Origin: Escherichia coli
Lineage (GTDB): Bacteria > Pseudomonadota > Gammaproteobacteria > Enterobacterales > Enterobacteriaceae
NCBI RefSeq assembly: GCF_024298765.1
Contig: NZ_CP101210.1
DNA: 64,000 nucleotides
Direction: 5' to 3' (one strand)
In this document: positions 4,921-43,220 of the stretch, one piece after another
Position numbering within the stretch: position 1 is the stretch's first letter
How the letters are laid out: each line of letters opens with the position of its first letter
Made by a program: the position numbers and the translations under genes
The notes under the pieces: generated by a model
What the model was told of the DNA's origin: nothing
Database searches by the model: none
The model's input: the letters and a program-made list of their open reading frames with translations, nothing else

Positions 4921-7320
4921 ATGAAGCTAACCGATGCGGATAATGCCGCCGATGGCATTTTTTTCCCCGCCCTTGAGCAAAATATGATGGGCGCGGTGTT
5001 AATTAACGAAAATGATGAAGTGATGTTTTTCAACCCCGCCGCAGAGAAGCTCTGGGGGTACAAACGTGAAGAAGTCATTGGCAATAACATTGATATGCTG
5101 ATTCCGCGGGATTTGCGTCCTGCGCATCCTCAATACATTCGTCACAACCGTGAAGGTGGTAAAGCTCGCGTCGAGGGGATGAGTCGGGAGCTGCAGCTGG
5201 AGAAAAAAGACGGCAGTAAAATCTGGACCCGTTTTGCGCTATCGAAAGTGAGCGCCGAGGGGAAAGTTTATTACCTGGCGCTGGTACGGGATGCCAGCGT
5301 AGAAATGGCGCAAAAAGAACAGACCCGACAATTGATTATTGCCGTTGACCATCTCGACCGACCGGTGATTGTCCTCGATCCGGAACGCCATATTGTGCAG
5401 TGCAATCGCGCATTTACCGAAATGTTTGGTTACTGCATTAACGAAGCCAGCGGTATGCAGCCCGATACACTCCTGAACATTCCAGAATTCCCTGCTGATA
5501 ACCGTATTCGTTTACAGCAGTTGCTATGGAAAACCGCCCGCGATCAGGACGAATTTCTGCTGTTGACGCGCACCGGTGAAAAAATCTGGATTAAAGCCTC
5601 TATCAGCCCGGTTTATGACGTGCTCGCGCATCTGCAGAACCTGGTAATGACATTCTCGGATATCACCGAAGAAAGGCAAATCCGCCAGCTTGAAGGCAAT
5701 ATTCTCGCCGCCATGTGCAGCAGCCCCCCATTTCATGAAATGGGGGAAATCATTTGTCGTAACATCGAATCTGTTCTCAACGAATCGCATGTTTCGCTGT
5801 TCGCGCTGCGCAACGGGATGCCGATACACTGGGCGTCATCTTCGCACGGTGCAGAAGTTCAAAATGCGCAAAGCTGGTCAGCGACCATTCGTCAGCGCGA
5901 TGGCACGCCTGCGGGGATCCTGCAAATTAAAACCTCGTCAGGAGCAGAAACCAGCGCCTTTATCGAACGCGTGGCAGATATCAGCCAGCATATGGCCGCG
6001 CTGGCGCTGGAACAGGAAAAAAGCCGTCAGCATATTGAACAACTCATCCAATTTGATCCGATGACCGGTCTGCCAAATCGCAATAACCTGCACAATTACC
6101 TCGATGACCTGGTCGACAAAGCCGTCTCTCCGGTGGTGTATCTCATCGGTGTTGACCATATTCAGGATGTGATTGATAGCCTTGGCTATGCGTGGACCGA
6201 TCAGGCATTGCTGGAAGTGGTCAATCGCTTTCGTGAAAAACTCAAACCGGATCAGTATCTCTGTCGTATTGAAGGTGCGTCTTTTGTCCTCGTGAGCCTG
6301 GAAAACGATGTCAGTAACATTACCCAGATCGCCGATGAGCTACGGAATGTGGTCAGCAAGCCGATAATGATTGACGATAAACCATTCCCGCTCACCTTGA
6401 GCATTGGCATCAGCTACGACGAGGGTAAAAACCGCGATTACCTGCTCTCCACTGCTCACAATGCAATGGATTTTATTCGCAAAAATGGCGGTAACGGCTG
6501 GCAGTTCTTCAGCCCGGCGATGAACGAAATGGTAAAAGAGCGTTTGGTTTTAGGCGCAGCGCTAAAAGAAGCGATTAGTAATAACCAACTTAAACTGGTT
6601 TATCAGCCGCAAATCTTCGCAGAAACGGGTGAACTGTACGGCATCGAAGCCCTTGCTCGCTGGTACGATCCCCTGCATGGTCATGTGCCCCCTTCACGGT
6701 TTATTCCTCTCGCAGAAGAGATTGGTGAAATCGAAAATATTGGGCGCTGGGTCATCGCGGAAGCTTGCCGTCAGTTAGCAGAATGGCGTAGCCAGAATAT
6801 TCATATCCCGGCGTTATCCGTTAACTTGTCTGCGCTGCACTTTCGCAGTAATCAGCTGCCTAATCAGGTATCTGATGCAATGCACGCCTGGGGTATTGAC
6901 GGCCACCAGCTGACGGTGGAAATCACGGAAAGCATGATGATGGAACACGATACCGAAATCTTTAAGCGCATTCAGATCCTGCGCGATATGGGCATCGGTT
7001 TATCGGTAGATGATTTTGGTACAGGCTTTTCCGGATTATCCCGCTTAGTCAGTCTTCCGGTAACGGAAATCAAAATTGATAAAAGTTTTGTCGATCGTTG
7101 TCTGACCGAAAAACGCATCCTTGCCTTACTCGAAGCCATTACCAGCATTGGGCAAAGCCTCAATTTAACCGTCGTGGCGGAAGGCATCGAAACCAAAGAG
7201 CAATTTGAGATGCTACGCAAGATCCACTGTCGCGTTATTCAGGGATATTTCTTTTCCCGCCCCCTGCCCGCCGAAGAAATTCCAGGCTGGATGAGCAGCG
7301 TGTTACCGCTGAAAATCTGA
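4921..7320 (+). CDS. dosP: Heme-PAS c-di-GMP phosphodiesterase DosP (PAS-GGDEF-EAL)
   Basis: ORF track gives 4897..7320; start moved to the ATG at 4921 (RBS gaggtaa 6 nt upstream), giving the 799-aa product; degenerate GGDEF plus an EAL domain (EAL at EALAR); forms an operon with dosC. Confidence 0.9.
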   Translation: MKLTDADNAADGIFFPALEQNMMGAVLINENDEVMFFNPAAEKLWGYKREEVIGNNIDMLIPRDLRPAHPQYIRHNREGGKARVEGMSRELQLEKKDGSKIWTRFALSKVSAEGKVYYLALVRDASVEMAQKEQTRQLIIAVDHLDRPVIVLDPERHIVQCNRAFTEMFGYCINEASGMQPDTLLNIPEFPADNRIRLQQLLWKTARDQDEFLLLTRTGEKIWIKASISPVYDVLAHLQNLVMTFSDITEERQIRQLEGNILAAMCSSPPFHEMGEIICRNIESVLNESHVSLFALRNGMPIHWASSSHGAEVQNAQSWSATIRQRDGTPAGILQIKTSSGAETSAFIERVADISQHMAALALEQEKSRQHIEQLIQFDPMTGLPNRNNLHNYLDDLVDKAVSPVVYLIGVDHIQDVIDSLGYAWTDQALLEVVNRFREKLKPDQYLCRIEGASFVLVSLENDVSNITQIADELRNVVSKPIMIDDKPFPLTLSIGISYDEGKNRDYLLSTAHNAMDFIRKNGGNGWQFFSPAMNEMVKERLVLGAALKEAISNNQLKLVYQPQIFAETGELYGIEALARWYDPLHGHVPPSRFIPLAEEIGEIENIGRWVIAEACRQLAEWRSQNIHIPALSVNLSALHFRSNQLPNQVSDAMHAWGIDGHQLTVEITESMMMEHDTEIFKRIQILRDMGIGLSVDDFGTGFSGLSRLVSLPVTEIKIDKSFVDRCLTEKRILALLEAITSIGQSLNLTVVAEGIETKEQFEMLRKIHCRVIQGYFFSRPLPAEEIPGWMSSVLPLKI

Positions 7321-33430: not shown

Positions 33431-33982
33431 CTATCTTCTTAGCGATGTCTTTCTGGTATCACATTGGATCGGTGCAATTATTTTTCCTTTAATACCCATT
33501 ATGTTAAGAAATTCAGAAACAGCTGTAATCTCATTGGTTTTTTCATTCGTCTTGATCTTCCAAGGAATCTGACTGTGCATTATTGAGAACACACTAATAA
33601 CGTGAATCGCTCCCTTGCGACGACTCTTGTCATAAGAGTACCGGAGCGTTTTTCCATCAATTGCAATGACGTCTTTATCATCTGAAGAATGGCAGTCAAG
33701 CATCCAGTTAATAAAGCACTCATGAAATTTTGCAGGACTGATACAGGATACAACTCTGGCAATGGTATCGTGAACAGGAATACCATTATCAAAATCACCA
33801 TATTGCTTCAAAAAATCGAGATGTGTTTCCCCAAAATCCTCTATATCTTCCCAGCCTTCTGCACCCGAAATAACGGCACAAATAGTCAACAGTAGAATAT
33901 CCGATAATTTATGTTCCACTTTCCAGGCTTGTCTGTAATCGGGGATAATAGAAATATGTTCCATCAATTTTTTAAGTTCCAT
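33431..33982 (-). pseudogene. ydcC: Truncated H-repeat-associated (ISAs1-family transposase-like) gene, N-terminal fragment
   Basis: 183-aa ORF matching only the N-terminal half of the roughly 378-aa H-repeat protein; the remainder is missing where the DGC gene begins. Confidence 0.7.
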
Positions 33983-34222: not shown

Positions 34223-34552
34223 ATGGCTGAACACGATATTACGCCAGAAGTCGCCATTTCCAAAACACAGCGCCGCTATAAAGTCGGCTATGTCAGAGCC
34301 CGCCACATAAACAGCAAAACCTACATGACCACGTACTACTCACGACACCCCAGCCTGAACCTTAAGGGCGACTGGCTGAAAGAGGCCGGATTTGATACCG
34401 GACGGGGTGTCACGGTGAAGATTTCGGAGGGGTGCCTGACCATCATCGCTGACAGTGACGAGGTGCAGGAACTGCGGGAGGAACTTTATCAGGTTAAACA
34501 GGTGGTTAAGGGGATGCGGAACGGGATGTTTAGTGTGCTGAACGAGAATTAA
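34223..34552 (+). CDS. SymE-family type I toxin-like protein (AbrB/SpoVT-fold)
   Basis: 109-aa ORF with RBS agagg; core LKGDWLKEAGFDTGRGVTVKISEGCLTIIA closely parallels E. coli SymE as I recall it ([30 protein letters not shown]). Confidence 0.65.
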   Translation: MAEHDITPEVAISKTQRRYKVGYVRARHINSKTYMTTYYSRHPSLNLKGDWLKEAGFDTGRGVTVKISEGCLTIIADSDEVQELREELYQVKQVVKGMRNGMFSVLNEN

Positions 34553-34602
34553 ATAATAAAAAAGCCGGGGAGATTTAAAATCTTCCCGGCTTTCTTTATC
34601 AT

Positions 34603-34905
34603 CTAAAAAGGTAATAATCCTCTAATAGGAGAAAATTTTGTAATATCAATACCTTGTAATTTAAAGTAATTAAAAGCATCTTCTATATTGGAAAACGCAC
34701 TAATTTCTTCAGTTGCATAATCTTCGAACACTTCCATTTTATTTTCTGGTATTTTGAAAAAATAGGTATTGTATTTTTCATCCTGTTTTTTAATGGCATA
34801 TTGGAAAAAATAACTTTCACCATTTATTTCCTTTATCTCATCAAAACCTCTAACCTTACCATTCTCTATAGCAACAATTAATTTTTCAATAGACAAATCA
34901 ACCAT
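34603..34905 (-). CDS. Putative Rhs toxin immunity protein
   Basis: 100-aa acidic, AT-rich ORF; start overlaps the toxin-tip stop by 8 nt; strong RBS (gagga). Confidence 0.6.
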   Translation of the reverse strand: MVDLSIEKLIVAIENGKVRGFDEIKEINGESYFFQYAIKKQDEKYNTYFFKIPENKMEVFEDYATEEISAFSNIEDAFNYFKLQGIDITKFSPIRGLLPF

Positions 34906-35312
34906 CTATATCTATCCTCACCATTGTCCCATCAGAACGTTTAATATTTATATGAGGCAAAGAACCATGCCCTGTGCCTTTATGGTCATCATGACCATAT
35001 ACACGACCAGTATTAGAATCAATAGGGTAACCTTTCCTATAACGGACAGTACCATCTCTTTTCTTAAATTGTTCCATCTTATGTTTTTTTCTAATACCGG
35101 CGGCATCCTGCGAACCGATCCCTCTTACTTTTTGAGCATCAGGAAAGGCCTCCATCAATAAATCATGGGCTTCCTGTTTTGATTTAACTGTGACAACGGT
35201 TCCTTGAGGCCCCTCTCGCAAAGATTTCGCGTTTTTGGAACATGCAGTCAGTCCCAGCGGATCGATCCAAGAGAGCGGATTCGGCGCGTATTGGTAGAGG
35301 TTTATTCCCCCC
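34898..35312 (-). CDS. Rhs C-terminal segment (core end INLYQYAPNPLSWIDPLGL plus variable toxin tip), out of frame with the Rhs core ORF
   Basis: Reading frame B on the minus strand gives GGINLYQYAPNPLSWIDPLGL followed by about 117 aa of His-rich variable tip (YGHDDHKGTGHGSLPH); it is joined to the core only if the G7 run at 35307..35313 is read as G6. Confidence 0.65.
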
Positions 35313-38300
35313 CGCTAACCCTATCGGATCCGTTACCATGAACCGCCCGACATCCGGATCATAGTACCTGTGCAGATTGTAATGCAGTCCCGTTTCCCTG
35401 TCGAGGTACTGTCCCTGGTAGCGCAGGTTCTGCGCCACCCCGCCGTGGTCCTTCTCCTGTATCGTGTTACCCCAGACCTGATACCCCGTCTCCCACACGA
35501 TTTTCCCGTCACTGTCCGTCATCTCTTCCGGCGCGCCGTTCACATCCGTGTGAAAATACAGTATCCGGTTCGGGCCCTCTTTGCCCGCCTTATCCACCCG
35601 CGCCAGCGGTTCATAACTCCCCGGGTCCCTGTAGATGTACAGGCTGTCTGTTCCCTCCGGCCTGCTCTCCTGCGCCAGCCGCATTCCGTCCCATAAAAAT
35701 GCCGTCCGGTTGTACGGTTTACCGTCAGGGCTGATGTGCTGTTTTTCCGTCCGCCTCCCCAGCGCATCGTACACATACCGGTACGTTCCCCGCGCTGTCG
35801 TCACTTCCACCATCCGGTGTTCCGCATCATAACGGTAACTCTGCGTGCCGCTCCGCCCCTCCTTTTCCACCGCACGGCCAAATTCGTCGTAACGGTAGTG
35901 CACACCACGGTAAGACATCAGCCGGTTGAACGGCACCACGCTGTTTTCTGCCGTGGCCCTTTCCCCCGCGCGCCGCCCCAGCAGGTTTCCCGCCGCGTCG
36001 TACTGCCAGCTCGCCAGATACCCCTCATCCTCCGAGCGGCACGCCGTGATGCGCCCCGTGGGGTCGTAGAAGTAATCCGTTTCCCCCCGCCGGCTGTGCC
36101 GCGTCTTCAGCAGTTCATCCTCGCCACTGTAGCTGTACTGCCGGTCCGTGAACGTCTCCGGTACCACCCCGCGCATCCCGCTGTATGTCTCCCTGCGCTT
36201 CAGCCGCCCGGCGGGGTCGTAAAGCTGCCGCGTGCTCAGTCGCCCCTGACTTCTGAGCACTTCACGGTGCAGGGCGTCACGAGTGAACTCGCTGATGACC
36301 TCCCGGTCCAGATTTATCTGCTGGAGATGGCCGCTGCCGTAGTACAGATGACGCTGCGTTCTGCCGTCCGGAAAGGTGGTGGCTGTCCGGTTGCTGAGTT
36401 CATCGTACTGATGGGTCAGGACGCCCTGCGCCGTCTCCTCAGTCAGCATCCGCCCCAGTCTGTCGTAACTGAAACGGATAATCTCCGGTGCGTCTGTTTC
36501 CCCGGCATCCGACCGTCGGCGGCGGATTTCCAGTAACTGGTCTGCCGCATCATGGACGTATTCCGTACGGCTATCGGCTGTCTCCTTTGCCGTGAGCCGG
36601 CCCGCCGCATCACGTGCCAGCCGGTGGCGGATTTCACCGCCCCGGTCCCCGGTGAACACCACTTCCGTGACCGCGTTCAGCGCGTTGTAGCGGTACGTCT
36701 GGCGGCAGCCGTCCGGATTTATCTGCTCCGCCAGACGGTCCAGCACGTCATGGCGGAACCGGTAGCTTTCTCCGTTCTCGTTTGTCAGCGTGACCAGACG
36801 CCCGTAAGCATCGTACCCGAACGCCGTCCTGCGCCCCGTCGCGTCTGTCCGGCTGCGCACCCGGCCCTGCCCGTCCCGCTGCCAGCGCGTTATCCTCCCC
36901 ATCGGGCTGGTGTACTTCACCAGCCTGCCCGCCGCGTCCGACTGGTAATTCACCGTGCGGCCGTCCGCCAGTATCACCTCCGTCAGGTGGCCGCTGTCGT
37001 CATACCCGTAGCGCGTGCTGTGGCTCTGCGCGTCTGTCATCCGTATCAGCCGCGTGCGTTCGTCGTAGAACCAGGCCGTCTGCGAGCCGGAACAGTCCGT
37101 GTGCCGCATGAGCTGCCCGTCTTCGTTCCACTGAAGGTATTTATTCCCCCCGCGCGCATCGGTTATCTGCACCACCTGGCCGTGGCGGTCATACTGATAC
37201 CGGGTGTTCTGCTGCAGCGGGTCGGTCACCGCAAGAAGATTGCCGCGTTCATCGTACTCACAGCACCAGCTGTTCCCCGCCGCGTCCACCTCCGTTTCCG
37301 GCTGGTGCCACACCGGGTGCCACTGTGTCTGTGCCACCCGCCCCAGCGGGTCGTGCGTCTCCGTGATATGCCCCTGCCGGTCATACACATAGCGCCATTT
37401 GCCGCCCTGCGCATCGGTCATTCCCAGTAACAGCCGTTCTTCGTCGCTCCAGCGGAACGTCGTCACCTGCCCGGCTTCGTCCTGGTACGCCGTCACCTGA
37501 TTCTGCGCGTCCCACTGATGATAACGCGTGCGCCCCAGCCCGTCCGTCACGCACAGCCTGCGTGACGCCAGGCTCCACGCCAGCCGGTACTGTTCACCGC
37601 TGTCCGTGTGGTGCCCCGTCACCCGCCACGCTGCGTCATCCGGGCCTTCATACCAGCTCCACTGGTAATAATACCCTTCGCCGCCCGGCTGGCGGTGCAG
37701 GGTCATGCAGTGGTTTTCGTCGTAAGCAAACTCGCGCAGCAGGTGTCCCGTGCTGTCGTACACGCCGTTCAGGTCGCCGGCCTCGTCATAGCGGTAACGA
37801 CGCAGCAGTAAAGGAGCCGTCTCAGGGAAATGCTGATAAATCTGTGTCACCCGCCGGGGATGCGCCGCCAGTTCATAATGCAGACGGATGCACGGACGCT
37901 GCTGTTCACCGCTGATTTGCGTGATGCGCCCCAGCTCGTCGTAGTACAGATTCAGACAGTTGCTGTTGCGGTCGCCCAGCATTTTCAGCCGCTGGCGCTG
38001 CGGGTGATGCGGGTCGGCTTCAAACAGAAAAAACTGCCCGTCATCGCTGCTGATAAGCCAGTGCCCCTGCTCACCCCGCCTTACCGCCAGTCCTTCGCCG
38101 GGGCTGTAAAACCCGCTCCCCGGCAGCACGGCCTCCATATCCAGGCGTCGCCCCATGCCCGACACAAAGGTCATGCAGTTTTCGTCAGCAGTACCCGGCG
38201 TGCGCCCGAGGCTGACTTCATACATCACGCTCCAGCCCTGCCCGAACATCCCTTCCGTGCGGTCGTCACGACTGCTGTACACGCGCTGCCAGTCCAGCGG

Positions 38301-39560
38301 AAAGTGGCCCGGCAGACTGAAATCGAAGTCATCGTCATCGGCCAGATATTTGGCTCCGGTGGCGGCATTGACCGGATGCGGAAGGGCACTGATGGCCTTC
38401 TGCGTCATCACCCCCATCCCGACACTGGCAGCAAAACAGGCGATTTTAGAAAGCATTTTGCCCGGGCGAAGAAACATCAGCGCCACGGTTGCCACCAGGG
38501 TTATCTGCGACCTGCCGCTTCTGATATCCCTGACCACCAGTAACGGACCGCCAATGCGGACATCCGGTGACACAAACGCCCCGTTCCCCGGCTCATTCAC
38601 CACCCTGGCCTCGCAGGTGCAGCGTGCCCCGCTGCGTGCCGCCGGCTGGCTGTTGATACGCACATCCCGCGCGCCTTCCGCGATATATTCCGCTGCGGGC
38701 GGTTCATCATCGCCTTTGAACAGATTACTGATGCTGCCAATAACCGCATTCACTCCCTGAAAGGCGGTTTCCAGCATACCGTCCGGACTCAGCAGGTTAA
38801 GGGCCGTTCCCAGGGGGTCATCCAGAAAGGCGGCTTTTTTTTGTGCGAGAAACTGCGTCAGTGAGGAGGGATGTTTATGGCAGTCGATTTTATCGTCAGG
38901 GGTCGGGGTGGAGCCCGGGGCCGCACTGGCCACGGTGGGCTGCCATAGTTCCGACACAAAATGTGTCACGCCATCCACCATTTCAGAACGCCCTTCTTCC
39001 GTACTGAGCTGGTCGTGCAGCGCCCGGGACATCAGCACAGGCCCTGTCACCGGGTTAACCGCCAGGGCTATGGCCCCCGCCATTTCCAGATATTCCCCGG
39101 CCACATCCAGGAACGTTCTGGCATCCTCCTGACGCTGCGCTTCTTCCTGTTCCGCCTTCGCCTGCGCCTCCTGCGCCTCAATGTCCTGCCGCGATGCCGC
39201 AGTCGCCGCGGCCCGCGCGGCAGGTTTGCTGTTGATCCATGTGTCGCCAGAGCCGGTGAGGATGTAACCTTCAATCTGAGGCGGGAAAAGCATATTTGCG
39301 AGGTCTGAACAGACTTCGCTGACCGTGTCTGTCACGCCGGTGTACACCATCGCCACACCCGCCACAAAACCGGTCAGCACGACGGCCGTGCACCCCATCG
39401 TGATCCCCACTGACGCCGCCAGTAACGAGGTTGTGCCGACAATGAGGGCATCAATAACGACATTTGCGGCCACCTCCAGCACCGCCCCCAGCACATCTGC
39501 CATAAACGACGTATGCAGCAGGGCATCACCCTGCCTTGCCGCCCAGAATGCCTCTTCCAT
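35184..39560 (-). CDS. Rhs-family T6SS effector core (prePAAR motif, TM helices, PAAR, YD repeats), as the ORF in the present frame
   Basis: 1458-aa ORF; N-terminus MEEAFWAARQGDALLH matches the prePAAR AARxxDxxxH motif; hydrophobic helices follow; literal PAAR motifs; numerous YD/RHS repeats; core end RYYDPDVGRFMVTDPIGLAGG; after the G-run the frame runs 41 unrelated codons to a stop at 35184. Occupies the K-12 rhsE position by synteny. Confidence 0.85.
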   Translation of the reverse strand: MEEAFWAARQGDALLHTSFMADVLGAVLEVAANVVIDALIVGTTSLLAASVGITMGCTAVVLTGFVAGVAMVYTGVTDTVSEVCSDLANMLFPPQIEGYILTGSGDTWINSKPAARAAATAASRQDIEAQEAQAKAEQEEAQRQEDARTFLDVAGEYLEMAGAIALAVNPVTGPVLMSRALHDQLSTEEGRSEMVDGVTHFVSELWQPTVASAAPGSTPTPDDKIDCHKHPSSLTQFLAQKKAAFLDDPLGTALNLLSPDGMLETAFQGVNAVIGSISNLFKGDDEPPAAEYIAEGARDVRINSQPAARSGARCTCEARVVNEPGNGAFVSPDVRIGGPLLVVRDIRSGRSQITLVATVALMFLRPGKMLSKIACFAASVGMGVMTQKAISALPHPVNAATGAKYLADDDDFDFSLPGHFPLDWQRVYSSRDDRTEGMFGQGWSVMYEVSLGRTPGTADENCMTFVSGMGRRLDMEAVLPGSGFYSPGEGLAVRRGEQGHWLISSDDGQFFLFEADPHHPQRQRLKMLGDRNSNCLNLYYDELGRITQISGEQQRPCIRLHYELAAHPRRVTQIYQHFPETAPLLLRRYRYDEAGDLNGVYDSTGHLLREFAYDENHCMTLHRQPGGEGYYYQWSWYEGPDDAAWRVTGHHTDSGEQYRLAWSLASRRLCVTDGLGRTRYHQWDAQNQVTAYQDEAGQVTTFRWSDEERLLLGMTDAQGGKWRYVYDRQGHITETHDPLGRVAQTQWHPVWHQPETEVDAAGNSWCCEYDERGNLLAVTDPLQQNTRYQYDRHGQVVQITDARGGNKYLQWNEDGQLMRHTDCSGSQTAWFYDERTRLIRMTDAQSHSTRYGYDDSGHLTEVILADGRTVNYQSDAAGRLVKYTSPMGRITRWQRDGQGRVRSRTDATGRRTAFGYDAYGRLVTLTNENGESYRFRHDVLDRLAEQINPDGCRQTYRYNALNAVTEVVFTGDRGGEIRHRLARDAAGRLTAKETADSRTEYVHDAADQLLEIRRRRSDAGETDAPEIIRFSYDRLGRMLTEETAQGVLTHQYDELSNRTATTFPDGRTQRHLYYGSGHLQQINLDREVISEFTRDALHREVLRSQGRLSTRQLYDPAGRLKRRETYSGMRGVVPETFTDRQYSYSGEDELLKTRHSRRGETDYFYDPTGRITACRSEDEGYLASWQYDAAGNLLGRRAGERATAENSVVPFNRLMSYRGVHYRYDEFGRAVEKEGRSGTQSYRYDAEHRMVEVTTARGTYRYVYDALGRRTEKQHISPDGKPYNRTAFLWDGMRLAQESRPEGTDSLYIYRDPGSYEPLARVDKAGKEGPNRILYFHTDVNGAPEEMTDSDGKIVWETGYQVWGNTIQEKDHGGVAQNLRYQGQYLDRETGLHYNLHRYYDPDVGRFMVTDPIGLAGGNKPLPIRAESALLDRSAGTDCMFQKREIFARGASRNRCHS

Positions 39561-39578: not shown

Positions 39579-40031
39579 TTAATTCGTCCCGGCTTCCTGC
39601 CGCATCCTGAAGCGCAGATTCTTTTTAATTTCAGCCCAGCGCGTCATATCTGCCGGGGTCAGCGGTGTGGTTCGGGCGTAGGTGAAGGCCATCATGACCC
39701 GCTCACCCGGCAATACAAATGCCACCTGACACTGGTACACCTGCTCGTTACCCCGGAGAAACTGGCTCTGTATTTCCAGTCCTTCTTCACCGTCATTAAT
39801 CCCCACCCGTGTTACCTGAACGGGCGTGTAGTGAAGATCCTTTACCTGTTTCTCCAGTTTTTTCATTTGCTGTTCAATCTGGGAGGCTAATTCGTCTCCT
39901 TCCTGCATCTGGCCCCGGCTGATAATGAGTGCAGCGTCGGGATCGCTGAGGCGCAGCATATTAATAGTACTGTCCTGAATAATATTCCCGGAAAAAGTTA
40001 CAACAGTTTCATTGAGATAATACTCCGTCAT
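39579..40031 (-). CDS. DUF1795 (Eag-family) effector chaperone
   Basis: 150-aa ORF immediately upstream of the prePAAR Rhs gene; size and position typical of Eag chaperones. Confidence 0.7.
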   Translation of the reverse strand: MTEYYLNETVVTFSGNIIQDSTINMLRLSDPDAALIISRGQMQEGDELASQIEQQMKKLEKQVKDLHYTPVQVTRVGINDGEEGLEIQSQFLRGNEQVYQCQVAFVLPGERVMMAFTYARTTPLTPADMTRWAEIKKNLRFRMRQEAGTN

Positions 40032-40081: not shown

Positions 40082-42076
40082 TTATTTTTTAGTCATGAAG
40101 GCGACATCTATCGCCAATTGAAGGGCTGTTTTTTCCGATGTTCCTGGCGGAAGTATATCTGCCGCCCTGTTATTCATATTTAAATCAAGCTGACCTGATT
40201 GTGTATTTATCTTTCCATTTTCTGTTGCAGTAATATTAAAATTCTTACAGGTTATATTAAATATTCCGTCACTGGTCATTTGCAGGATAGTGTTCCCACA
40301 ACTAAGAATTATGGAATCTCCCGCAGCAAGGCGTAAATTCTGTACGGCCTGAATCGTTTTATTTTGTCCGGCAAGGGAGGTATCATCCATCTGAACTGTA
40401 AGAGAACGTTCCTCACCAATTATCGCTGTTTCTGTTTTATCAATGACTTTAAGGCGATTATTGCCCACCCAGTGGCTTTCATTATTATTTACTTCAATGC
40501 GTTGATCTTTCTCGGCATGCAACCAGATTTCTTCTCCGCCAGTTTTATCCTCAAAACGCAAGGCGTTAGCATTGGTCGGGCCGCCGCCGATAGTGTGGCT
40601 GTAAAACCCGCTTTGCGTCGCTGCGCCCGGTAGTCCCCACGGTGGCATGGTGTCCTGATTGTAGGTACGCCCAACGATTATCGGTAAATCCGGATCACCG
40701 TTTTTGAAATCCACCAGTACTTCCTGACCAATGCGCGGGATCTGAATGCCACCGAATCCTTTACCCGCCCACGGATAACTGACACGGACCCAGCAGGAAC
40801 TATTTTCGTCATTCTTACCGTAACGATCCCAGCCAAACTGAACTTTCACCCGGCCATATTTATCTGTCCAGATTTCCTGCCCTGCCGGGCCGGTGACGAT
40901 GGCGCTCTGCGGGCCTTTAGTGTGGGGTTTGCTCAGGGTTCGTTGTGGGCGGTAAACTTCGCTGGTGGGATGCAGTTCAAAGCTGGTTGAGTAAGAGAAA
41001 TGCTGCTCCTGGCCGCTGTGTTGCGCATTGTCCTGTATAAATAGCGTGGTCTGTACCAGCAGATATTCCCGGTTCACTTCGGCTGTCGGATAGTTTTCCA
41101 GGGTGAAGGTAAAACCTGTCATCAGGGTACGAATATTGCCGCTGCCCTGTACCCGACTACCTGGGCTACGCTGTTCTTCCATGCGAATGCGTGTCAGCAT
41201 TTCACCTTCACTCTTTGTGAAGTAATCTCCCGGCCATTCGTAGTGCTCATATTCAGCAAGGCCGGTTTCACGCGGATTAGCCACGGTGCTCTTCAGCAGT
41301 GAACGCGGCTTCATAAAGTCGAAATCATTCAGCACCCACTGTCCGCTGCGCAGACTTTCATTTGCTGTGATGGTATGGATAAACTCCTTGTCCAGTTTCA
41401 GCCCTTTCTGGTAATAACACACCAGCGGCGAATCTGCGCATGCCTTGTGGACATTAATGGCATCAGCCAGCACTAACGTGTGACTGTTCTCGCTGTGCTC
41501 AAACCACCAGTAGATACCCCACTCCTGCATCAGGCGCTGAACAAAATCGAAATCTGTTTCACCGTACTGCACCTGCCAGGCGCGAGTCGGATAATTTTCC
41601 ACCAGTCGTTTTTCCACTGGCCAGGGGTACTCATCCAGTACCTCATCCAGGATCTCCACCACGTTTTTATTCTGAAACGCTTTGTAGTCACTAGTGTGGG
41701 TCAGTATTTTTAACCACGGTTCGAGCCGCAGTTCATACACCACCGAACGTCCTTGATGACCAGCCACGCGTGCCGCCGTCACCAGCCCGCTGATATAACG
41801 TTTTCCGCCGCCATCCAATTCGATATTGACGCACAGATCTTTGCCCACCATCGGTTTGAGCTGCAGGTTGGCTGCGGGGGAAACATAGCCCAGGTTCAGG
41901 ATGTCAGGAGTTTTTAATTTAATAGAATAAGTAAATAGTTCCCCTACTGTTTCTGTACCCCCTAAGCTTGCAAACAGTAACATTCCATCAGGAACTGCGC
42001 TGCCGCTCAAAGTCACGTTATGTGTACCCGATCCAGTTAGTGCGCCGGATGGATAATCTGTAGCTGCAAAACTCAT
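40082..42076 (-). CDS. vgrG: Type VI secretion spike protein VgrG
   Basis: 664-aa ORF; gp27/gp5-like architecture; directly precedes the Eag-Rhs genes. Confidence 0.85.
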
Positions 42077-42297: not shown

Positions 42298-42654
42298 TTA
42301 TTTGATATGATTATCATCAAGTCTTAAAATACGTTCTCCGGTTCTAATTATGCTAAAACCATAGTATTCTTTTTTACTTCCGGAAGAGAGCATATATTTC
42401 CCTATATACATAACATCTGAAGATAGCTCACTTATATCAATACATACGGGTTCGAACTGACCTGTCACTCTTTTCAACTTTATTGCATTGCCATATTTAC
42501 CTTCATATAAAACATAATTTGAAATAATATTCCCATCGTCTGGTTTTGAACAAATCTGTCCGTCTTGCAAATATACACTACCGGGTAACAATGGGCGAAC
42601 ATAATCACCAACAGTGCATCCCGACAAAAAGAAAAACAAAAAGAATCTCTTCAT
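42298..42654 (-). CDS. Small lipoprotein of unknown function (candidate immunity protein)
   Basis: 118-aa ORF; signal peptide with lipobox FLSGC; AT-rich; start overlaps the stop of the upstream HExxH gene (ATGA). Confidence 0.6.
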   Translation of the reverse strand: MKRFFLFFFLSGCTVGDYVRPLLPGSVYLQDGQICSKPDDGNIISNYVLYEGKYGNAIKLKRVTGQFEPVCIDISELSSDVMYIGKYMLSSGSKKEYYGFSIIRTGERILRLDDNHIK

Positions 42655-43220
42655 ATGACACCCGCAGGAAATAAATTAAGCACCTTTTTGTATTTTTCCG
42701 ATAGAGTGTTCACTGATTCAGTTGTATCACCTACATAGTTAACATTTGCCAAATCAGCCACCAGTCCATAGTTAATTAATAGCCAATAATCAACAACTAT
42801 AGATGCTTGTTGTTCCATGGAATAAGAAGAAATTGACTGTAAATTAAGATCGTAATGATAATTTGCCGCCCAAGAAAATAAACCACGCAACTTAACTGCA
42901 TACCCTTTCTGATATTGCCAAACATGCATCATTTCATGAATAAACAAGTGAGAAGCACCTGCTACTGTTTCACGATCACCAGGCATTGCTTGCGATGAAT
43001 AATCTGAACTATAAACAGCATCAGGATAATACATTTCCCCGTTTGGGGTCATCGCTGTTCTTTCCCCTTGACCAGGCAAATATTTTTCATTGTGGATCCA
43101 TACCTTGCTATAATCAATTGTATTCTCAAAAATCGATCTGGCCAATGTTAATTCACCAGATGTCATTCTCCTTAATGACATATCCTTTCCCCTGGAAATA
43201 ATATCTTTCAGATAAAACAC
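42651..43220 (-). CDS. Cysteine-free HExxH zincin-like protein (candidate T6SS cargo effector)
   Basis: 189-aa ORF (alternative start at Met14, position 43181); single HEMMH motif within ASHLFIHEMMHVWQYQ; no signal peptide; AT-rich; translationally coupled to the lipoprotein gene. Confidence 0.55.
   Translation of the reverse strand: MFYLKDIISRGKDMSLRRMTSGELTLARSIFENTIDYSKVWIHNEKYLPGQGERTAMTPNGEMYYPDAVYSSDYSSQAMPGDRETVAGASHLFIHEMMHVWQYQKGYAVKLRGLFSWAANYHYDLNLQSISSYSMEQQASIVVDYWLLINYGLVADLANVNYVGDTTESVNTLSEKYKKVLNLFPAGVI

Follow-up and report, generated by a model that had tools for sequence, protein, structure and literature searches.

In Escherichia coli, a +1 frameshift at a run of seven G separates the delivery shell of an Rhs protein from its C-terminal toxin tip and very probably pseudogenises the toxin arm of a predicted vgrG-eag-rhs type VI secretion (T6SS) effector, with the neighboring immunity gene left intact. 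The lesion lies in a stretch of 64,000 nucleotides that was analysed as a whole and is from now on referred to as the window. An earlier note on this DNA had proposed three readings of the run: a homopolymer sequencing error, an inactivating mutation sparing the immunity gene and a slippage-prone switch. Of these, the inactivating mutation is borne out by a heritable G7 allele, an in-frame ancestor and the absence of in-frame revertants from 5,426 complete E. coli genomes.

A run of seven G breaks the rhs reading frame

The run consists of exactly seven G on the minus strand (35313..35307), as had been claimed. The minus-strand junction reads GAT CCG ATA GGG TTA GCG GGG GGG AAT AAA CCT, corresponding to DPIGLAGG-NKPLPIRAES, and the out-of-frame tail ends at the stop reported before, at 35184; its length is 40 codons, the earlier figure of 41 having included the stop. 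The conserved continuation of the core and the variable tip do lie in the adjacent frame, where 35305..34898 encodes INLYQYAPNPLSWIDPLGL followed by a tip of 116 aa. When one G was deleted in silico, the predicted AGG-INLYQY junction and a single ORF of 1553 aa were obtained. TIGR03696, the NCBIfam Rhs_assc_core model of 76 positions, is divided between the two frames: positions 1-56 match aa 1360-1418 at the core ORF's end, and positions 57-76 match aa 1-19, with which the +1-frame ORF begins. The splitting of one domain exactly at the run is independent proof of the frame break. The two DPxGL motifs behave in the same way, with the core frame containing the first (35330..35316) and the +1 frame the second (35263..35249), and they share one frame only once one G is deleted. 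The G7 tract is the only run of seven or more C or G in the 64-kb window, against about 6 that base composition alone would predict, so it is the coincidence with the frame break that matters and not the run itself.

Table 1 Features of the rhs locus in the window.
Feature	Position	Strand	Description
G7 homopolymer (C7 on the plus strand)	35307..35313	-	+1 insertion; frame break between two DPxGL motifs
rhs core ORF, 1458 aa	35184..39560	-	prePAAR, hydrophobic N-terminus, YD-repeat shell, first DPIGL, 40 out-of-frame codons, stop
+1-frame continuation	34898..35305	-	Last 19 aa of the Rhs core (INLYQYAPNPLSWIDPLGL) and 116-aa tip of an uncharacterised family
Candidate cognate immunity gene, 100 aa	34603..34905	-	Intact; 26% GC; 8-nt overlap with the tip stop
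Eag-type chaperone gene, 150 aa	39579..40031	-	DcrB/DUF1795-like; RefSeq 'DcrB-related protein'
vgrG, spike protein gene, 664 aa	40082..42076	-	Heads the vgrG-eag-rhs island; TIGR03361, E 2e-168
Sigma-70 promoter-like site inside the rhs ORF	35376..35404	-	TCGACA, 17-nt spacer, TACAAT; 10/12 matches
symE-like toxin gene	34223..34552	+	Convergent with the immunity gene; annotation, NCBIfam
ISAs1-family transposase remnant	33431..33982	-	Bounds the rhs element; annotation, NCBIfam

Organization of the predicted effector island

Based on its gene content, the locus is predicted to be a T6SS effector island composed of vgrG, an eag chaperone gene, a prePAAR Rhs gene and an immunity gene (Table 1). 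Rhs residues 7-16, AARQGDALLH, fit the prePAAR motif, defined as AARxxDxxxH (PMC7773334), and a hydrophobic stretch is seen by eye in the translation at residues ~20-80. The core matches the NCBIfam models RHS_core (E 3.5e-90) and YD_repeat (TIGR01643, in 11 stretches). The PAAR domain is matched by the NCBIfam model T6SS_PAAR_dom at E 0.0016, under its cut-off, and Pfam PAAR_motif gives only a 'faint' match on the Escherichia ruysiae orthologue described below, whose Eag counterpart matches Pfam DcrB (PF08786). GC content is 62% in the core and 41% in the tip continuation. An in-frame toxin fusion is absent, with the tip out of frame and the ORF at the immunity position intact. This 100-aa ORF is a candidate immunity gene, its function being read from position alone; the exact protein is encoded on at least 1000 public contigs. 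All related loci examined have a symE-like gene along with the tip-immunity module.

The island is flanked by ansP on one side and pptA-yddH-nhoA-nar on the other, a position that we take to be the rhsE site. The same neighborhood (ansP ... pptA, yddH, nhoA, nar operon) presumably harbors the rhsE pseudogene of E. coli K-12, a decayed rhs, and we assume that the K-12 site contains a truncated rhs only, with a different tip and immunity gene. The window differs from K-12 rhsE in that its vgrG-eag-rhs island is complete, with a lesion of one base.

The ancestral junction is in frame

G7 is a derived mutation and the ancestral state is in frame. Using the restored 1553-aa sequence as a protein query, an intact orthologue was identified in E. 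ruysiae; two other protein searches were confined to proteins no longer than roughly 1.75 times the query and were blind to full-length Rhs proteins. The orthologue (P0240; loci L010-L013) is present on 18 contigs, comprises 1553 aa and shows 92% identity over 100% of the restored length. Its length is the one predicted from removal of one G, which supports the frame reconstruction. The E. ruysiae junction, GCG GGT GGG ATA, is in frame without a homopolymer. In E. coli A37 and GF130, DPMGLLGGLNLYQY is in frame without a run, the A37 junction being CTT GGT GGA CTG, and distant homologues are likewise in frame at the junction. Orphan copies of the same tip have G6 in all eight cases (MEI003 and seven draft loci).

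The E. ruysiae locus resembles the window in encoding eag, a prePAAR-Rhs, a 100-aa immunity protein and a convergent symE, with the same tip and immunity gene. It differs in its location, between kdpA and phrB instead of at the ansP-nhoA site, and in that vgrG is not immediately upstream in the stretch seen. In addition, its tip keeps D and P at both positions that are changed in the window.

Distribution of the G7 allele

The G7 allele is heritable. About 65 complete E. coli genomes, sequenced independently by different laboratories, carry it, and an identical 901-nt segment is present in at least 30 complete genomes. Among public assemblies, the truncated Rhs product is encoded on 44 contigs, and the 85-aa downstream ORF with the G and H alleles described below on at least 1000. 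At the locus, the G7-lineage strains 104 and E04 show zero indels relative to the window. Strain 2020N21-246-1 carries G8, the run being its only indel relative to the window in 10 kb; G8 is also found in the assembly of 2020N21-246, related by name, and is out of frame too. In the flanks, identity to the window is at least 99.9% for three sampled lineage strains (two G7, one G8) and 95-97% for strains with other locus states, which argues for a single origin.

G6 junction queries of 239 nt and 80 nt had no exact match in full-length context among the 5,426 complete E. coli genomes. Neither G6 nor G9 attached to full-length rhs was found in these genomes or by exact look-up, and restored 1553-aa sequences were not found among 15 billion proteins. 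Cluster members of 1554, 1552 and 1541 aa were considered as G9 revertants and rejected, having unrelated tips. The comparison of run length in related loci, suggested in the earlier note, gave G7 in about 65 genomes, G6 in 8/8 orphans and G8 in one strain. No paper describing the G7 allele was found in the literature.

The toxin tip carries a putative second lesion

Two codons are substituted in tips of the G7 lineage: 35032..35030 has changed from D to G and 34984..34982 from P to H. The D, part of a KDY motif, is found in every close homologue and is replaced by G in the G7 lineage; relatives containing Tox-HNH-EHHH have E at the aligned position. D to G may reflect inactivation or relaxed selection. 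The earlier note had covered neither this lesion nor the fact that the tip is broken in other ways in other E. coli lineages. Comparing the tip of the G7 allele with the E. coli A37/FHI alleles yields 2 non-synonymous and 0 synonymous changes, and dN/dS on tip and immunity gene was uninformative due to too few substitutions.

Neither Pfam, run on the tip and 16 homologues, nor NCBIfam returned a family match for the toxin part, and a sequence search of solved structures did not yield a relative. The Tox-HNH-EHHH model (PF15657) was matched only by five distant sequences already known to carry it. When toxin-only profiles were compared with Tox-HNH-EHHH using hhalign, a weak link was obtained (probability 69%, E 4e-5, 50 columns).

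Decay of the locus in other lineages

The G7 lesion represents decay of an ordinary kind, for which this toxin locus is known. Other E. coli lineages have an internal deletion (EKEG|PQGTVV, L003), an rhs without its N-terminus (L002, L005), almost no rhs at all (L004) or mobile or insertion elements upstream (L008, L015), and the 100-aa immunity ORF is kept in all of them. The immunity ORF is itself broken in two orphan loci (L016, L021). Overall, the tip-immunity module is retained, in broken contexts, in 87 genomes. The crossover between fused and orphan forms falls within CCGATAGGG; formation of the fused haplotype from an orphan by deletion and the reverse both predict the same junction.

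Related arrangements are known from other systems. In the main and orphan rhs of Salmonella Typhimurium LT2 (PMC3967940; PMC7043789) and the C-terminal displacement arrays of Enterobacteriaceae (PMC2935791), silent tips and their immunity genes are located downstream of a main rhs, recombination in the conserved end of the core joins tips to it or removes them, and dissociated fragments decay via frameshifts and stops. Similar to the main and orphan rhs of Salmonella, the tip of the window occurs both as an orphan, in the eight G6 copies, and attached to a core. However, in the window the tip is joined to a full-length core and lies one base out of frame, whereas the Salmonella orphan is silent for another reason, lacking a start codon and a delivery region.

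A fixed frameshift would disarm the effector

We propose that synonymous changes converted the interrupted stretch seen in E. ruysiae, GCG GGT GGG ATA, into GCG GGG GGA ATA and thus G6, and that the tract would have become mutable because these changes created G6 from an interrupted glycine stretch. Slippage from G6 to G7 would then have been a single event, inherited since, in the ancestor of a group of closely related E. coli strains. The predicted product is an Rhs shell ending in 40 nonsense residues, which would stand in place of the toxin, the C-terminal autocleavage site and the second DPxGL with its catalytic Asp. The second DPLGL holds the catalytic Asp for C-terminal cleavage, and cleavage is required for toxicity (PMC8636562). 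The effector would be disarmed while the downstream immunity gene stayed intact, and toxin delivery has probably been lost in the G7 lineage. Several points weigh against this explanation: the 1418-codon core upstream of the run is uninterrupted and the tip ORF free of stops, which is also what a gene still in use would look like, within-lineage divergence (at most 0.1%) is too low to test relaxed selection, and ribosomal or RNA polymerase slippage on G7 may restore the frame at a low level. An uninterrupted core and an open tip ORF are expected if the mutation is recent.

Alternative explanations

An assembly or sequencing error, with a true run of G6 and an intact gene, is hardly credible. 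Homopolymers are error-prone and the complete genome of strain 181.1 has G5, but that assembly is itself faulty, with three further homopolymer deletions within 900 nt, and its G5 was dismissed as an assembly artefact. The same G7, with otherwise identical sequence, recurs in the complete genomes of many laboratories, draft assemblies contain the split ORFs too, on hundreds to thousands of contigs, and the restored protein is absent from the databases searched; given the ~65 independent genomes and the 44 contigs with the truncated product, the error proposed in the earlier note was rejected. A phase-variable switch, in which high-rate changes in G-tract length toggle toxin arming within populations, is very improbable as well. 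In its favor, tract length has changed in evolution, from G6 to G7 to G8, and G8 is the only indel in 10 kb of 2020N21-246-1 and was seen again in 2020N21-246. However, each haplotype has one length (G7 in ~65, G6 in 8/8 orphans, based on consensus assemblies, which are blind to minorities), the sole credible variant, G8, is also OFF, full-length rhs was never found with an in-frame run in the searches described above, and the tip additionally carries D to G at a conserved residue. For high-rate switching in mismatch-repair-proficient E. coli, a tract of seven G is short. The stability of run length within lineages argues against a phase switch, and the slippage-prone switch suggested before was not upheld.

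The remaining alternatives would preserve some use of the tip. Recoding, either by a +1 tRNA-Gly slip on GGG_G or by RNA polymerase slippage, could yield a small amount of full-length armed Rhs next to the truncated shell: a +1 slip on the first GGG re-pairs perfectly and yields exactly AGG-INLYQY, the tip ORF is still open, the immunity gene is kept and slippage rescue of a T6SS gene has precedent (PMC4256274). In Citrobacter rodentium tssM1, both products of transcriptional slippage at A11 were shown experimentally, and transcriptional frameshifting is likewise reported for Yersinia pseudotuberculosis tssM (PMC4256274). Like rhs in the window, tssM1 is a T6SS gene broken at a homopolymer with its essential C-terminal part in the downstream frame; however, the window has G7 instead of A11, the run is absent from orthologues and there is no sign of a second product. 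With E. coli RNA polymerase, slippage was not detected below T7 or A8, G runs being outside that study (PMC6260861). Moreover, AAT, which enters the A site once the run has been read, is neither a stop nor a rare codon, and any toxin produced would be without the conserved acidic residue. The orthologue and other alleles are in frame without the run; lack of conservation of the shift site speaks against programmed recoding, and we regard recoding as improbable. Similarly doubtful is a leaky G7, in which rare +1 slippage would arm few Rhs proteins and leave most as 'blank' shells capping the VgrG spike; if true, T6SS firing and a low toxin dose would be kept and retention of the immunity gene would be explained. 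Somewhat less unlikely, though still improbable, is expression of the tip-immunity pair from an internal promoter and an internal start downstream of the run, in a toxin-antitoxin-like manner, as reported for Salmonella rhs; the frameshift would then have no bearing on the present role of the tip. There, the internal P2 start site is located 89 nt upstream of PxxxxDPXGL (PMC7043789). The promoter-like site at 35404..35376 lies, by coordinate count, ~90 nt upstream of the PxxxxDPLGL coding sequence, a position corresponding to P2, in-frame CTG, TTG and ATG codons follow the run, and the module is retained in broken contexts in the 87 genomes mentioned above. On the other hand, the promoter match comes from a consensus scan only, D to G may abolish activity and the immunity ORFs of the two orphan loci L016 and L021 are broken. 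For the delivery function, internal expression is compatible with a fixed frameshift that disarms the effector.

Annotation and strain biology

The relevance of the G7 allele lies mainly in annotation and strain biology; the lesion itself is ordinary. All seven RefSeq annotations of lineage strains examined in full list the gene as an ordinary 'RHS repeat-associated core' or 'DUF6531' protein, with two hypothetical proteins after it. Strain 181.1 alone, whose assembly has the other homopolymer errors noted above, is flagged as frameshifted in RefSeq. Since the frameshift is unflagged in the lineage annotations, the effector repertoire of the lineage would be overstated by one toxin. Synonymous drift towards a homopolymer in the Ala-Gly-Gly junction may create a weak point exactly where the toxin joins its delivery shell. 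A natural 'blank' Rhs, without toxin or C-terminal cleavage site, could be used to address the role of the cage alone in T6SS function. For the tip family, which has no Pfam model, the intact E. ruysiae form would be the one to characterise. The G7 lineage is largely poultry- and human-associated.

Organization of the rhs island

The locus is an E. coli vgrG-eag-rhs-immunity effector island. The Rhs N-terminus carries the prePAAR motif (PMC7773334) AARQGDALLH; behind it come a hydrophobic region and the YD-repeat shell. As is usual for Rhs loci, GC content drops from core (62%) through tip (41%) to immunity ORF (26%).

Features of the rhs island
Feature	Coordinates	Strand	Details
Two small ORFs	42298..43220	minus	189 aa + 118 aa; upstream of vgrG
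vgrG	42076..40082	minus	TIGR03361, E 2e-168
Eag chaperone gene	40031..39579	minus	DcrB/DUF1795-type, 150 aa
rhs core ORF	39560..35184	minus	1458 aa
Divergent patch	39292..39465	minus	174 nt; Rhs residues 28-90, N-terminal transmembrane region
Promoter-like site	35404..35376	minus	TCGACA, 17-nt spacer, TACAAT; 10/12 matches
Seven-G run (G7)	35313..35307	minus	
+1 frame	35305 to 34898	minus	INLYQYAPNPLSWIDPLGL, then 116-aa tip
Tip-immunity module	34586..35215		
Positional immunity gene	34905..34603	minus	100-aa ORF; 8-nt overlap with tip stop
Hairpin	34561..34593		15-bp perfect, AAAGCCGGGGAGATTT...AAATCTTCCCGGCTTT; between convergent immunity and symE-like genes
Rfam isrA sRNA	34294..34422	minus	Hfq-binding; 118.8 bits, full length; antisense within symE-like gene
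symE-like gene	34223..34552	plus	downstream of rhs, convergent
ISAs1 remnant			downstream of rhs
pptA, yddH, nhoA, nar			housekeeping genes, downstream of rhs
ansP			opposite side of island from pptA, yddH, nhoA, nar

The isrA match suggests an antisense-controlled type I toxin adjoining the rhs tip module, and the hairpin is likely a bidirectional terminator. The two small ORFs may represent a vgrG or rhs fragment and a partner gene; RefSeq lists the longer one, at 176 aa, as 'type IV secretion protein Rhs', and the other is hypothetical.

Frame break at the G7 run

On the minus strand, 35330..35300 reads GAT CCG ATA GGG TTA GCG GGG GGG AAT AAA (DPIGLAGG, then NK...), and the last 40 residues of the core ORF (NKPLPIRAES...RCHS) are out-of-frame junk. 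Deletion of one G yields a single 1553-aa ORF. Positions 1-56 of TIGR03696 (NCBIfam Rhs_assc_core, 76 positions) match the end of the core ORF and 57-76 the start of the +1 ORF, so that a single domain is split exactly at G7, the only C or G run of at least seven in the 64-kb window. The earlier note had described a frameshift separating the Rhs core from its toxin tip, with this core reading and stop and a product of about 1553 aa if the run were six G; all of these details hold. The +1 frameshift is real and heritable, and very probably turns the toxin arm of this T6SS Rhs effector into a pseudogene in a single lineage of E. coli.

In Photorhabdus Rhs1, the C-terminal cleavage site comes after two DPLGL motifs, the second of which provides the catalytic aspartate, and toxicity needs cleavage (PMC8636562). 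The frameshift falls between the two motifs, so the product would have neither toxin nor cleavage site, and no catalytic Asp either; by analogy with Rhs1, what is made would be a blank shell ending in 40 nonsense residues.

Sequencing error, switching and internal expression

Of the three explanations that the earlier note offered for G7, homopolymer sequencing error is practically excluded. At least 30 complete E. coli genomes share the surrounding 901 nt at 100% identity, and G7 follows a full-length core in about 65 genomes, as counted by short junction queries. The G6 junction had no exact match in 5,426 genomes, the best 60 matches all carrying one extra base. In a collection of 15 billion proteins, the truncated 1458-aa product occurs on 44 contigs and an 85-aa ORF, placed by gene callers in the stranded tip, on at least 1000, while restored 1553-aa sequences were not found there. 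Relative to the window, strains 104 and E04 of the G7 lineage have no indels at the locus, and in strain 2020N21-246-1 (G8) the run is the sole indel in 10 kb. A G5 run in strain 181.1 (NZ_CP059907.1, a 'complete' RefSeq assembly) was rejected as a true variant: four homopolymers are shortened there within 900 nt around the rhs tip, the other three deletions marking the assembly as faulty and its frameshifts as unfit evidence of variation.

An ON/OFF phase switch at the G tract, another of these explanations, is exceedingly improbable. Over evolutionary time the tract shows some mutability. In consensus assemblies, which are blind to minority subpopulations, run length is uniform within haplotypes (about 65 G7; orphans 8/8 G6), and nothing points to switching. 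No in-frame run length attached to a full-length core was found, and the sole credible variant, G8 in strain 2020N21-246 and its derivative, reads AGGE-stop and is also OFF. Recoding that yields a low level of full-length Rhs is very unlikely, if marginally less so: tRNA-Gly slipping by +1 on GGG_G would restore precisely the AGG-INLYQY junction, and tssM of Citrobacter rodentium is rescued by slippage (PMC4256274), whereas here the run is G7 instead of a long stretch of A or T, an ordinary AAT occupies the A site after it, and the shift site is not conserved, orthologues being simply in frame. Slippage at a low background level may still occur. Internal expression of the tip-immunity pair as a toxin-antitoxin-like module, which is compatible with the frameshift, is somewhat less doubtful, though still unlikely. 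By coordinate count, the promoter-like site precedes the PxxxxDPLGL coding sequence by about 90 nt. The internal P2 start site that drives expression of Salmonella rhs tips as such modules has this same position (PMC7043789), and tip-frame start codons are present downstream of G7.

Decay of the tip across E. coli

The remaining explanation, an inactivating mutation that leaves the immunity gene intact, is the one supported: the tip is out of frame and the 100-aa ORF is whole. Among the E. coli complete-genome loci examined in detail, none encodes a fully intact effector with this tip (60 of the 87 tip-bearing genomes were listed individually). Besides the G7 frameshift and G8 (two assemblies of one strain), several other locus states occur: L003 has an internal in-frame deletion (EKEG|PQGTVV) removing the cage end, L002 and L005 lack eag as well as the rhs N-terminus, L004 is deleted almost entirely, L008 and L015 have upstream mobile elements, and in L007 the tip is displaced and sits as an orphan. 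Every one of these states keeps the 100-aa immunity ORF. Toxin loss with immunity kept is familiar at rhs loci (PMC2935791; PMC3967940), and the E. coli states fit this picture. The G7 frameshift is unremarkable at a kind of locus known for such decay; its value lies in correcting annotation and in providing a natural blank-shell allele. Immunity retention is not universal, since the ORF is broken in two orphan copies from draft E. coli genomes (L016 and L021), one of them reading 55 + 44 aa and the second 67 aa.

The G7-lineage tip also carries a D to G change in the conserved KDY, which sets it apart from all other tips; D is kept in every close homologue, and in the Tox-HNH-EHHH relatives the residue aligned with it is E. 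A P to H change is common to the G7 lineage and the orphan haplotype.

Origin of G7 and ancestral state

Flanks of the sampled lineage strains (two G7, one G8) match the window at 99.9% identity or more, against 95-97% for genomes with other locus states. G7 is a derived mutation of single origin. Three independent lines show that the ancestral state was in frame. In Escherichia ruysiae the protein is intact and exactly 1553 aa long (18 contigs; 92% identity to the restored sequence at 100% coverage); the same 100-aa ORF and symE come after it, and the in-frame junction lacks a homopolymer (CTG GCG GGT GGG ATA AAC). E. coli A37 and GF130 have DPMGLLGGLNLYQY in frame (codons CTT GGT GGA CTG), and orphan tips behind other rhs modules, in MEI003 and seven draft assemblies, have G6 in 8/8. 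The comparison of run lengths in related strains proposed in the earlier note returned G7 in about 65 genomes, G8 in one strain, G6 in the orphans and no run in E. ruysiae, A37 and GF130. Given these interrupted in-frame Gly-Gly stretches and G6 orphans, the likely path is synonymous drift to G6, then a one-base expansion to G7.

Strain 104 carries, at another locus (L009, kdp/ybf to phrB, ~6040..6060), an orphan tip with an in-frame seven-G run (GCG GGG GGG CTA) at the same Ala-Gly-Gly junction, annotated as 'HNH/endonuclease VII fold putative polymorphic toxin' and found in the same genomes. Long G runs at this junction are thus found repeatedly among rhs genes, where they pose a constant hazard.

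E. coli lineages with flanks that diverge by 3-5% share a tip-immunity module of 99% identity (comparison loci L002-L005); relative to E. ruysiae (L011), the module's dS is only 0.03-0.06, against an 8% difference across the whole locus. Lateral exchange seems to have reached the module more recently than its surroundings. The divergent patch is wholly different from that of strains 104 and 2020N21-246-1 of the same lineage and accounts for 40 of 41 amino acid differences from them, the remaining gene being ~99.9% identical. Since other E. coli Rhs proteins (P0243, P0364) have N-termini that match the version in the window, the patch looks like the result of gene conversion from a paralogue, at about the time of the frameshift or later.
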